64,000 nucleotides of DNA from an uncultured Gammaproteobacteria bacterium (GCA_963729605.1 CAVSNY010000003.1:418018-482017), one strand, 5' to 3'. Shown: positions 1,055 through 4,076, counted from the first letter of the stretch. Notes: generated by a model from the letters alone, not told the origin. Program-made: numbers and translations.

Positions 1055-1396
1055 TTATGCGGCGCGGCGCGGTTCGCTGTTGGAATTGGCGGCCTCATCG
1101 CGCCGTGCCTGGCCGTTTAACGCGACCACCTCACTGGTGAAGCAGTGCGGCATTTCCGCGTTAGCGCCGCGTTCCGCACGCCACAAGGAAGTACTCAGGG
1201 GTGTTGCGGCGCACAAGGCCATGAGGCCGAAGACAACGCCCAAGGCAATGAAGGCGGTATCTTGCAAAGTGAACGGGCCTTGGTGAAAGAAGATGTGCCC
1301 TCCGATTAGCAGCGTTGCCTGTATGGCGTAGAAGGCGATTTCGGCAAAACGGGCAACCCGCAGGGGGTCTAAATGAAGGGTTGATTTCGTATTCAT
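1055..1396 (-). CDS. Small membrane protein, unknown function (2 predicted TM segments)
   Basis: Strong AGGAGG RBS before the ATG, two hydrophobic stretches, ends at the terminator hairpin. Confidence 0.7.
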   Translation of the reverse strand: MNTKSTLHLDPLRVARFAEIAFYAIQATLLIGGHIFFHQGPFTLQDTAFIALGVVFGLMALCAATPLSTSLWRAERGANAEMPHCFTSEVVALNGQARRDEAANSNSEPRRAA

Positions 1397-1821
1397 ATTA
1401 ATTACCTCCTAATTAAAATGAAAAATATAAACACGAATAACACGATCACTTGACTCGGAGACCGCGGTTTTCCGCAGCTCCTTGCTCGCGCGTAACAAGA
1501 GATTTTTTACGCCGGAAAAAGTTCCGTAAGGAAGATCTGCAAGGGAATTTCCGATTTACCGCTGTGAATCCGTCCAACAAACGATATCCGCAACGCCCCA
1601 TGGTGCTGAAGACATGGACACGCGGTGACATGACGGGCGGGCGCCGTCCCGCGACGGCAAGCCGCTCACAGCAGTCAAAGTCACGGATGAATTCACATCC
1701 TGCGGTAGCTAAGGAAAGTGTGGCGAGGGCGACGTTAGCGCATCGCCCTATTCAGTAATTGGATGTGTTGGGCAAAACTCGTGCTTCTTCCAGGATACGG
1801 AGAAGACTTCAATGTCTGGCC

Positions 1822-2547
1822 TTAACGGCGGAAGATCATTACTACTGCGGAACAAAAGTCTTTATATGTTCCTCCTTTGGGCGTGGGTGTCGGCGATCTT
1901 TGGGGCGTGGTTGTAGTATCACCCTCATCGAAATAAACGCCAAAGTCATAGGCTACCCCCGCCGTCAAATCGAAATAATCGGAATTGACGTCCTGCACGC
2001 TTATATGAGGTCCCGGCGTTACGCTGCCCAGGTAATATTGAGCGCCCAGTAGGATGTTATTGCCTGTACGGACGGCCACACGATGTTCAAGAATTTGACC
2101 CGCGCTATCACCATCGAAGGAACAGCGGGTTTGCACAAAGGCGCGGGCATTGACGGTGGGTGTATAACTGTTCAGAACCTCTCGATTATTTGCATCGACA
2201 TCAATGCGAGGTGCAATCGGGATATAACCGGTGTAACCCGTCGTGACTTCGGGTACGGTAAAGTTCCCCCTGCGCTGATTCAATAATGCCCCGATCGATG
2301 CCGACACGGCATTTTCTATGACTTGAATACGTGTTGCGTGATCCGCTATGTCCGACGTATTGGAATTGATACGCGTATTATTATCATCCACCGCCGTTTT
2401 CACCGCGTTGAAATTGGCGTTGACCTCGGCGGCCTTGGCCGGTGTGCCGGCGGTAAAGGTGGTGAGATTGGTTACTTCACCCGCGTTGGCGTGGTGAGCC
2501 ATCAGAATCAGCGCTGTCATCGCAGCGAGTTTAATACGGGGATTCAT
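1822..2547 (-). CDS. Secreted hypothetical protein with N-terminal TFTAGTPAKAAEVNANF motif and short coiled coil
   Basis: Sec signal (…HHANA|G), GGAGGA RBS, heptad-like segment followed by a beta-rich C-terminal domain. Confidence 0.8.
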   Translation of the reverse strand: MNPRIKLAAMTALILMAHHANAGEVTNLTTFTAGTPAKAAEVNANFNAVKTAVDDNNTRINSNTSDIADHATRIQVIENAVSASIGALLNQRRGNFTVPEVTTGYTGYIPIAPRIDVDANNREVLNSYTPTVNARAFVQTRCSFDGDSAGQILEHRVAVRTGNNILLGAQYYLGSVTPGPHISVQDVNSDYFDLTAGVAYDFGVYFDEGDTTTTPQRSPTPTPKGGTYKDFCSAVVMIFRR

Positions 2548-2590
2548 TCTGTCCTCCTGCGATGTTTATTCTTCTGTGACGGGGGCCGGT

Positions 2591-2767
2591 TTATTGCCAC
2601 TGCCCTTCATCCCATTTCACGGTGTCCCATTCCAGGGCCGCGGTCGGCGGCGTGGCGCTGGGAGCGGGGACATTCGAGGCGCTACCTCCGCCGCCGCCAC
2701 CGCAGGCGCTGAGGGCGCAGATGGCCAATAAGAGGCAGATCGAGAATACCGATTTGGTTGATTGCAT
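2591..2767 (-). CDS. 58-aa lipoprotein with C-terminal Trp repeat (WDTVKWDEGQWQ); not in the ORF track
   Basis: Manual translation MQSTKSVFSICLLLAICALSACGGGGGGSASNVPAPSATPPTAALEWDTVKWDEGQWQ*; lipobox LSAC followed by a Gly tether. Confidence 0.8.
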   Translation of the reverse strand: MQSTKSVFSICLLLAICALSACGGGGGGSASNVPAPSATPPTAALEWDTVKWDEGQWQ

Positions 2768-2966
2768 CTGCGGAGACCCCCCGCTCTATTTATTTATGTT
2801 ATTTATGATTATCTCGCACGACGCTGGATACTTAAGAAATCGCGCGTACACAGAAGTCTATACTCGCCACTTCATTCTGCCCAGTAGGCACGGCTTCGAT
2901 TCGTACAAATACTTTATATTAAACACGCAACTCTTTGTGTATTAAATTAATTTAAATAAACATCGA

Positions 2967-4076
2967 TCATAAATATTCTCGTCCAAACACGCCTTCCAGG
3001 CGGAAGGTGATGGAGGGTTCGGGGTCGAAACCCCGCTCTTCGAGAAAAATAACCTGGGGGATGAGCTCGATAAACAGCCAGCTTTTATAAACGTCTTTGC
3101 GATAATGCACCGCCGCGGTGTATTGCCTGACATCCCAATCCGGATCTTGAGTGGCCACCATGCTCAGTTGATAAACCAGATATTGGCGCTGATCCAATTG
3201 TTGATAAAGCGATACGCGCTGTTCGGCGGTGAGAAATTGATCGTTCTCTTCCCAGCTCAAAATCGAGGCGCTGCGGAACAGCCAGGACTCACCGAGGCGC
3301 CGGTCGTATTCCAAGGCGGTGTTGGCGCCGAAGCCGTCATTGCTGAACCAGAACATGCTGCCGGACGCCCTTTCGAGCCATCCATCCAGATTACGATAAC
3401 GGCTGGCACGCAGACGCACGAACAGGTCCGGACTCCAACGTAACCGGACGCCCGCGGCCGGCCGGATGTCCCAATCCTTGGCCTGATTCACGCTCTCGAC
3501 GGAGAGCAGATAGTCCTGCCGCTCCAGCACGTTCACTGGTGATTCATCGGGGCGGTCCGGGACACTTTCTTTGGCGTCGCTTTCGATGAGGAGTTTCAAT
3601 TTCCGCTCGGTGCGCGGTAAATCGATCTTGATTCTAAGATCGCCGTCGAAACTCAGCTGATAATCTTTATCCAGCGTGGTGTCGAGGCGCAAGCGGGCGT
3701 AGGTCGACGTCGCTTCATCAAAGGATTTGTCCTCGGCGAAGAAACTGTCGATATTGCGCGCCATCCTCTCCAGGCCGGAGGACACCACTATATGCGCGGC
3801 CTCGGTCTTCTCCAGCAAGGTTTTTACATCGTCCTTTTCAATCTCATCTGCATCCCTTTCAAGCTCATCCGCGGCGGGTGCGGAATCGTCCGCGGCGGGA
3901 AGGTCGTCATCGCCGGGCGCGACCGATTCGTCCCCCTCTTGCGCGGGGATGGCGTCGACCAGGGTCTCGGCAAAAAGGGGCGCGGAATACATGACCAGCG
4001 TTACCGCCAATGTCATTACGGCTGCCACGCATCTGTGGGAAAAAGGACGGATCATGGGAACGGCGCGATCGTACAT
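2967..4076 (-). CDS. Putative outer-membrane beta-barrel protein (start uncertain)
   Basis: Signal peptide, acidic low-complexity N-terminus, amphipathic aromatic-rich strands, C-terminal FRLEGVF. Confidence 0.7.
   Translation of the reverse strand: MYDRAVPMIRPFSHRCVAAVMTLAVTLVMYSAPLFAETLVDAIPAQEGDESVAPGDDDLPAADDSAPAADELERDADEIEKDDVKTLLEKTEAAHIVVSSGLERMARNIDSFFAEDKSFDEATSTYARLRLDTTLDKDYQLSFDGDLRIKIDLPRTERKLKLLIESDAKESVPDRPDESPVNVLERQDYLLSVESVNQAKDWDIRPAAGVRLRWSPDLFVRLRASRYRNLDGWLERASGSMFWFSNDGFGANTALEYDRRLGESWLFRSASILSWEENDQFLTAEQRVSLYQQLDQRQYLVYQLSMVATQDPDWDVRQYTAAVHYRKDVYKSWLFIELIPQVIFLEERGFDPEPSITFRLEGVFGREYL

Follow-up and report, generated by a model that had tools for sequence, protein, structure and literature searches.

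A conserved bacterial gene pair for a three-tryptophan lipoprotein and a fibre protein, with a predicted docking joint resembling that of podovirus tails

In Salmonella, the small lipoprotein SadB is encoded in one operon with the trimeric adhesin SadA and aids its display; SadB is itself a folded trimer, and SadA is held in place by a C-terminal barrel of its own. In the virion of phage Pa223, a trimeric fibre binds the Fiber Attachment Loop of the tail hub in a mismatched, mainly hydrophobic 3:1 contact, in which W363, W370 and W377 form a pseudo-threefold surface inserted at the fibre base, as reported (10.1101/2025.06.11.659172). By that account, a docking principle based on three tryptophans, seven residues apart, is experimentally established in one phage. 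For the MAT (mosaic adhesive trimer) fibres of Bdellovibrio bacteriovorus, the original work gives the cell-surface partner of the N-terminal domain as unidentified (Caulton et al. 2024, PMC10769870). Here we analyse a pair of minus-strand genes at positions 1822–2767 of a 64,000-nucleotide (nt) stretch of DNA from an uncultured Gammaproteobacteria bacterium (GCA_963729605.1, CAVSNY010000003.1:418018-482017), the whole of which is referred to as the window. The genes code for a 58-residue lipoprotein ending in a regular repeat of three tryptophans (tri-Trp) and for a 241-residue exported fibre protein. Both genes are real, conserved and paired across phyla. We consider it likely that they constitute a self-contained anchor-and-fibre cassette which stems from a podovirus hub–fibre joint and in which the tri-Trp lipoprotein tethers a fibre trimer. 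The pair is composed as follows, positions being those of the window.

2591–2767, minus strand: open reading frame (ORF) of the small lipoprotein, 58 residues (stop codon 2591–2593)
2702–2767, minus strand: signal peptide and lipobox L-S-A-C, residues 1–22, Cys22 being the lipidated residue (from the sequence)
2630–2701, minus strand: Gly6 followed by a low-complexity tether rich in Pro, Ala, Ser and Thr, residues 23–46 (from the sequence)
2594–2629, minus strand: tri-Trp docking motif W-D-x3-W-D-x3-W-Q, residues 47–58 (from conservation and predicted interface)
2548–2590, minus strand: 43-nt spacer between lipoprotein and fibre genes (from the sequence)
2553–2558, minus strand: AGGAGG, five bases ahead of the fibre ATG (from the sequence)
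1822–2547, minus strand: ORF of the fibre gene, 241 residues (stop codon 1822–1824, ATG at 2547)
2482–2547, minus strand: Sec signal peptide ending in A-N-A, residues 1–22 (from the sequence)
2410–2481, minus strand: conserved N-terminal docking module, residues 23–46 (from invariant residues and predicted contacts)
2275–2409, minus strand: helical stalk, probably a trimeric coiled coil, residues 47–91 (from the AlphaFold2 helix and a profile match)
1825–2226, minus strand: TNF/C1q-like β-sandwich head, residues 108–241 (from Foldseek; two invariant cysteines, C142 and C232)

An earlier reading of the window from its sequence alone (below, the sequence-only reading) had picked out the 58-residue frame for its LSAC lipobox, its Gly6/Pro-rich tether and its terminal Trp repeat and had placed it 43 nt before the secreted protein; both descriptions are confirmed. 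With L-S-A-C at residues 19–22, the protein possesses the lipobox which bacterial lipoproteins require as substrates of Lgt and LspA. The mature protein comprises 37 residues, and its 12-residue tail reads W47-D-T-V-K-W52-D-E-G-Q-W57-Q58, the tryptophans being five residues apart. Among 48 aligned small family members the invariant positions are limited to C22, W47, W52 and W57; D53 reaches a conservation of at least 90%. The tether differs among the relatives in composition and in length, measuring about 15 residues in the shortest and over 100 in Myxococcota, or includes whole extra domains. The Gly after Cys22 suggests sorting to the outer membrane by the rule of Escherichia coli, where Gly following the lipidated Cys directs a lipoprotein to that membrane. 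A chance ORF was considered and rejected, as the small frame is conserved across relatives. A single-sequence, word-indexed search with the 58-residue protein returned two relatives only, and a profile search was needed; it yielded at least 237 lipoprotein clusters (90% identity), none of them informatively named, and all 13 clusters that were fetched display a Cys-Gly run and a terminal tri-Trp. Applying the lipobox criterion [LVI][ASTVI][GAS]C to loci L015–L094, 55 tri-Trp frames passed (one doubtful) and four more were recognized by eye.

Most tri-Trp partners are lipoproteins of 45–65 residues, accompanied by some long lipoproteins with the same tail. The latter, of 150–457 residues, are found at L028 (1106–2476), L040 (1089–2393) and L048 (1496–2470) and in the Myxococcota loci L058, L073 and L082; they contain acidic Asp-Gly-rich repeats, other domains or very long Gly-rich linkers, and end in the same tri-Trp tail directly upstream of the fibre gene. 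The occurrence of the tail on long lipoproteins as well implies that it behaves as a portable module. At L066, L067 and L092, one of them a Cyclobacteriaceae metagenome-assembled genome (MAG), proteins of about 135–142 residues that end in tri-Trp and have no evident lipobox are encoded just after the fibre gene.

The association of the two genes was followed at increasing phylogenetic distance. In the window's family, fibre matches are present in 5 of 12 genomes, the window's included, and at all four other loci a small tri-Trp lipoprotein gene lies directly upstream; one of these loci shares only the N-terminal module of the fibre. A scan of one genome per species, covering 185,579 species, gave 349 confirmed relatives, the best 80 of which were analysed. 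The motif W[DENQ]x3W[DENQ]x3W is found in a neighbouring frame at 65 of these best 80 loci and in a relaxed form at 7 more, that is, at 72 of 80. At 69 loci the strict form W-x4-W-x4-W is at most 8 residues away from the terminus of an open frame, and at 66 the motif is on the strand of the fibre and within 400 nt of its frame. Altogether, W-x4-W-x4-W occurs 86 times in the 80 loci; 20 residue shuffles gave 8.3 occurrences on average and 13 at most. The hosts belong to the Gamma- and Zetaproteobacteria, Desulfobacterota, Myxococcota and Campylobacterota and include an Aquificales MAG and the Cyclobacteriaceae MAG. Cultured carriers among them are Steroidobacter agaridevorans SA29-B (L020), Mariprofundus sp. 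EBB-1 (L032) and, with the long form of the lipoprotein, Oceanobacter mangrovi SM2-42 (L028).

Within the class, the lipoprotein and fibre profiles were run separately on 201 genomes, one per family except for the window's own family (G000 and G003). Lipoprotein hits to the signal-peptide half only (model positions 1–38, E 1e-8 to 1e-5), located inside large ORFs, were dropped as generic leaders. Full-length lipoprotein hits (E up to 4e-11) remain in 13 of the 201 genomes, all 13 of which also contain the fibre; no genome has the lipoprotein only, 4 have the fibre only and 184 neither, these being counts from related genomes that are not fully independent. Of the 16 lipoprotein genes, 15 immediately precede a fibre hit with the same orientation. 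The conserved synteny, which the sequence-only reading had named as a check, is thus found both in the class and at 72 of the best 80 loci across phyla. Several loci (L065, with four fibre genes, and L022, L025, L033, L064, L084 and L042) present tandem arrays of 2–4 fibre genes with one tri-Trp lipoprotein gene; the tandem fibres have the N-terminal module in common and differ in their downstream parts.

The architecture of the fibre protein likewise corresponds to what had been read from the sequence, namely a short coiled coil followed by a β-rich head: the AlphaFold2 monomer model contains a helix at residues 39–89 and a β-rich part at residues 108–240. Its mean predicted local distance difference test score (pLDDT) is 63.8, based on 14 sequences, with about 70–86 in the head. 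The stretch quoted as the start of the protein begins at residue 30, which is residue 8 of the mature fibre. In 95 aligned fibres with differing heads, F31, A39, V42, N43, N45 and F46 are invariant. A profile of these 95 fibres compared with all PDB chains matched coiled coils only, i.e. the trimeric coiled coil of the P22 tail needle gp26 (E 1.4e-5) and avian reovirus sigma-C; no sequence similarity of the N-terminal module to a solved chain was detected. Foldseek related the head to the jelly rolls of TNF/C1q type (CD40L, LIGHT and C1q) and to the Bd2133 fibre tip (8ond/8ok3) with E values of 6e-4 to 3e-3, probabilities of 0.99–1.0, template modelling scores by target of 0.4–0.5 and sequence identities of 8–17%. 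The two invariant cysteines of the head fit an exported protein. On the basis of the coiled-coil and head similarities, the fibre would be a trimer. A C-terminal YadA-type barrel, the trait of trimeric autotransporters, is absent from the Pfam matches up to an E value of 1, and the link to trimeric autotransporter fragments consists of a weak coiled-coil match (E 0.35–0.45).

A word-indexed search produced 97 fibre relatives, 13 of them full-length with 50–98% identity; the remaining ones have only residues of about 25–100 in common and carry other C-termini. The C-termini of the module-sharing relatives belong to Collar (PF07484), Peptidase_S74 (PF13884), FGE-sulfatase (PF03781) or the Lcl C-terminal family (PF07603), or to no Pfam family. 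An exhaustive HMMER search extended the family to 1084 representative fibre clusters (50% identity) at E values up to 0.001 and also detected head residues 123–241 alone at the C-terminus of other, longer proteins. The family fibres P0055, P0067, P0077 and P0082 end in an FGE-sulfatase-type (C-type-lectin-like) domain, a fold typical of the targets of diversity-generating retroelements. A protein atlas provided only leads below 0.9 (unnamed viral and Nitrospirota clusters and an Sf6 tail-needle-knob cluster), which were not used.

A direct contact between the two proteins is predicted by folding three copies of fibre residues 23–100 together with one copy of lipoprotein residues 23–58 from custom alignments. 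The interaction prediction score from aligned errors (ipSAE) was 0.69, 0.67 and 0.62 in three runs, and the best of three controls reached 0.00; the score mark applied is attained by 116 of 157 solved complexes and by 2 of 215 mismatched pairs and serves as a rough guide here. Modelling with a trimer of the partner had been suggested from the sequence alone, and at ipSAE 0.62–0.69 versus 0.00 for controls it returned an interface. The runs share at least 96% of their contacts, with a pLDDT of about 69 for the partner chain and about 89 for the other chains. In the model, fibre residues 31–42 of all three copies face lipoprotein residues 44–58: W47 touches F31 of copy 3 and A39 of copy 2, W52 touches F31 of copy 2 and A39 of copy 1, and W57 touches F31 of copy 1 and A39 of copy 3. 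Each tryptophan is positioned between two fibre chains, so that one peptide would fill three equivalent inter-subunit pockets with a 1:3 stoichiometry. The residues in contact coincide with those that are invariant in the two families. No pattern of covariation linking D48/D53 of the lipoprotein to residue 38 of the fibre (Lys/Arg versus Val) was visible on inspection by eye, statistics not having been run. The proposal of the sequence-only reading, that the lipoprotein is a docking peptide which anchors or nucleates a fibre oligomer, is supported by the synteny, by an interface predicted with failing controls and by the Pa223 principle; the binding as such is a prediction.

The same combination of module and motif is present in phages. 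A scan of IMG/VR retrieved 41 viral loci in which the module is located about 9–11 residues after the initiator Met of fibre-like proteins. At 34 of the 41, fewer than 25 codons precede the module Phe, which leaves no room for a signal peptide in those viral fibres; among the bacterial copies, 84 of 87 have a hydrophobic core ahead of the module, versus 2 of 41 viral ones. At 18 of the 41 loci, the gene directly upstream codes for a protein of more than 400 residues with W-x4-W-x4-W. This motif is separated by about 50 residues from the C-terminus of the hub protein, which comprises 526–721 residues, and its three tryptophans are among only 16 invariant columns in 10 viral upstream proteins with 18–20% identity between groups. 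The upstream proteins match phrog_3287, 'virion structural protein', and the viral gene order is of the podovirus type: capsid, tail protein, Trp-bearing protein, fibre and ejection-like genes. In the GenBank podovirus MW202803.1, the homologue, annotated as 'phage stabilization protein', carries W-G-S-S-L-W-G-S-S-S-W, and the next gene starts with a variant of the fibre module.

For an AlphaFold2 model of a viral hub (pLDDT 43), the first 11 Foldseek hits are without exception tail hubs or nozzles of podoviruses, headed by 9nwi_Y of Pa223 (E 2.6e-11); at this pLDDT they have to be taken as a consistent list and not as a reliable superposition. PDB sequence searches with three viral hub proteins gave no relevant match. 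The window fibre itself has no match in PHROGs and no tblastn match in 50,697 phage records. At L110 (3980–4237) and also at L100, L123, L128 and L130, the module-bearing viral protein is only 85–100 residues long and may be an adaptor instead of a full fibre. Taken together, a podovirus hub and fibre pair is probably the evolutionary source of the bacterial pair.

In the window, the cassette lies between housekeeping genes, with maf on one side and alr-dnaB-rplI on the other, and the following further features are found around it.

2768–2966, minus strand: AT-rich intergenic region upstream of the pair (GC content 0.43–0.45 versus about 0.6 in the flanks)
2967–4076, minus strand, upstream of the pair: gene of a 369-residue exported protein, acidic in its N-terminal region and β-rich in the remaining part
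1055–1396, beyond the fibre stop: ORF of 113 residues

Both genes of the pair are single-copy in the genome of the window. The intergenic region 2768–2966 probably holds their promoter; a promoter and terminator scan detected no sigma-70-like consensus site and no terminator-like site on the minus strand. The GC content over 1200–3300 is about 0.49–0.54, compared with 0.60–0.70 in the flanking housekeeping genes, and 425 nt devoid of a convincing ORF separate the fibre stop from the 113-residue ORF (1055–1396). The low GC content and the ORF-poor gap are compatible with a horizontal acquisition of the cassette. In the same genus, an 89-residue open fragment adjoining maf (L014, G003:C62:103236-103466) corresponds to fibre head residues 153–241, and an intact lipoprotein–fibre pair is located ~10 kb away on the same contig; the fragment looks like a remnant of the pair at its window position.

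Pfam offered no match up to an E value of 1 for the lipoprotein, the fibre, the 369-residue or the 113-residue protein, and NCBIfam nothing at threshold for the four, with no family for the 241-residue fibre up to an E value of 1. Clustering of 363 neighbouring ORFs from 81 loci by blastp showed neither a third conserved gene within 2.5 kb nor a conserved export or assembly gene. The co-oriented β-barrel gene upstream, which the sequence-only reading had considered as export or display partner, does not qualify for this role: homologues of the 369-residue protein are present in 10 of 12 genomes of the family, five of which have no fibre, at only 3 of the 81 loci, and in G004 and G007 on another contig or about 2 Mb from the pair. 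It was therefore rejected as partner, being a core gene of the family that also occurs without the fibre or at a distant genomic position, and represents a conserved envelope protein unconnected with the fibre pair.

Both genes are covered by contigs of relatives (90–99% alike) in RNA libraries, and a 319-nt rhizosphere metatranscriptome contig of a relative spans 2509–2834, which takes in the small ORF completely and the fibre gene in its first part. The insertions and deletions of relatives, including those in 2768–2966, are all outside the small ORF, inside which a single substitution affects a non-conserved position. The RNA contigs are assembled, have small word shares and report presence in RNA libraries only, not level, ends or strand; gaps in their coverage carry no information.

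Consistent with the genomic and modelling results, we propose the following scenario for the lipoprotein as a tether of the fibre. The first gene would supply a lipidated Cys, a flexible tether and a 12-residue tri-Trp C-terminal tail. The product of the second gene would be exported by the Sec pathway and trimerise by its coiled-coil stalk, presenting a TNF/C1q-like head. One lipoprotein tail would then cap the N-terminal tip of one fibre trimer, each tryptophan entering one of three pockets built by F31 of one chain and A37, A39 and V42 of its neighbour. The resulting pseudo-threefold plug, one peptide to three fibre chains, would hang the fibre from the membrane on its tether. We infer that the variable heads bind an external or envelope ligand in adhesion or recognition.

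Several observations weigh against this scenario. The binding is a model prediction; the custom alignments and the 3+1 chains are outside the calibration of the tool, the pLDDT of the partner is moderate at about 69, and the Pa223 structure 9nwi, released in 2025-08, was possibly seen by the folding model. The trimeric state draws on coiled-coil and head similarity, and the monomer model is mediocre (pLDDT 63.8). Furthermore, at 7 of 79 assessable loci (one locus having no upstream DNA) there is no tri-Trp gene within 2.5 kb, at about 7 loci the gene follows the fibre gene or has the opposite orientation, 4 of the 17 genomes with a fibre give no full-length lipoprotein hit, and a few tri-Trp proteins are devoid of a recognisable lipobox. 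None of the neighbouring ORFs at the 81 loci provides a route across the outer membrane, and a periplasmic location of the complex is possible. Finally, the evidence for transcription is weak, coming from contigs of relatives with possible DNA carry-over.

The lipoprotein might instead be a transient assembly factor which registers three exported chains and nucleates the coiled coil, the finished fibre being released, secreted or handed on. The synteny and interface data fit this possibility equally, nucleation was among the original proposals, and the single lipoprotein gene accompanying 2–4 tandem fibre genes at some loci suits a catalytic helper. We nevertheless judge it rather unlikely: in the phage precedent, as reported, the tri-Trp loop is a permanent structural joint of the virion, and the lipid anchor and long tether, which have no obvious use in a pure chaperone, are kept in nearly all members. 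Still less probable is a functional link without contact, in which the lipoprotein acts in release or lysis, or as an envelope-stress signal, for a fibre-like bacteriocin or adhesin. Small lipoproteins encoded beside secreted proteins do include bacteriocin release proteins, and both products of the pair bear export signals. Such roles would not account for three tryptophans at fixed spacing as the sole invariant features of the mature lipoprotein besides Cys, for the same features in phage hubs that are not lipoproteins, or for a specific predicted interface with controls at 0.00. A decaying prophage fragment without cellular role, to which the GC dip over 1200–3300 (about 0.50 versus 0.60–0.67 in the flanks), the broken head copy beside maf in the related genome and the clearly phage-type module might point, deserves hardly any weight. 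In contrast to virion proteins, the bacterial copies have acquired Sec signal peptides (84 of 87) and a lipobox, and their frames have stayed intact in the different phyla. The pairs are not flanked by phage genes, the neighbours in the window being maf, alr, dnaB and rplI, and the families extend to at least 237 lipoprotein and 1084 fibre clusters.

With the tri-Trp lipoprotein as a fibre tether, a structure of the cell envelope seems to dock by the code of a joint in the virion, which looks like a domestication of phage parts. In a broader and tentative form, possible at somewhat less than even confidence, several phyla would have domesticated the podovirus joint as an envelope plug and socket, the portable 12-residue tail, grafted onto small or larger lipoproteins, capturing any trimer with an N-terminal socket of about 25 residues and the phage-type, receptor-binding heads being exchangeable. 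If this is true, TNF/C1q-like, Collar, S74 and C-type-lectin/FGE-like heads would be shown on one common anchor, and the pair would represent a previously unrecognised class of envelope appendage and the kind of partner that is missing for Bdellovibrio-type fibres. Neither the lipoprotein family nor the fibre module is represented in Pfam or NCBIfam or bears an informative name in the records inspected; as the small gene falls short of the usual ORF cut-offs, genome annotation often misses the lipoprotein. For the question of how phage-like fibres are held on bacterial cells, the pair offers a concrete hypothesis with named residues. A 12-residue peptide predicted to bind a small trimeric socket 1:3 could also serve surface display or protein assembly.

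Searches of the open PubMed Central and bioRxiv literature yielded no description of a cellular tri-Trp lipoprotein or of this fibre module; a 'three tryptophan' match for Tuc2009 refers to a sugar-binding site and is irrelevant. The statement of the sequence-only reading that no characterised system has this layout therefore holds for cells in that literature and fails for phages, where a counterpart exists. Compared with SadB/SadA, the window fibre has neither a barrel nor a Pfam domain, and the lipoprotein consists of an unstructured tether and a 12-residue motif. The MAT fibres, reported to be trimeric with swappable C-terminal tips behind a conserved N-terminal part (PMC10769870), resemble the window fibre in being Sec-exported and phage-like; the window fibre would likewise be a trimer, its relatives carry differing C-termini behind the common module, some of them with the S74 domain, and the window head resembles the Bd2133 tip. 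The two differ in that MAT fibres have, according to the same work, a β-rich N-terminal domain of about 130 residues, whereas the window module of about 25 residues is followed at once by a helix; in line with this difference, the MAT N-terminal domain was not detected in the window fibre (no NCBIfam family at E up to 1, AlphaFold2 helix from residue 39). The uncultured podoviruses (MW202803.1 and IMG/VR L100–L135) share the Trp spacing, the fibre module and the position of the Trp gene directly upstream, and differ by fibres without signal peptide and by a context of capsid, tail and ejection genes. In Pa223, as reported, the tryptophans are 7 residues apart versus 5 in the window, and the loop is internal to a 513-residue β-propeller hub in the virion, whereas the window motif is the lipid-anchored C-terminus of a cellular protein. 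Sequence homology to gp60 or gp59 was not detected by the fibre profile against the PDB or by tblastn of the window fibre in the 50,697 phage records, and the β-propeller hub loop is absent from the window lipoprotein and found only in the viral relatives, on the model of pLDDT 43. The uncultured-phage hubs with the Trp spacing of the window match the Pa223 hub best in structure, as judged from that pLDDT 43 model. The Pa223 gp59 loop and gp60 (PDB 9nwi) and, by prediction, the window pair share one segment with three regular tryptophans, a pseudo-threefold plug, the N-terminal base of a trimer as its socket and a 3:1 stoichiometry.

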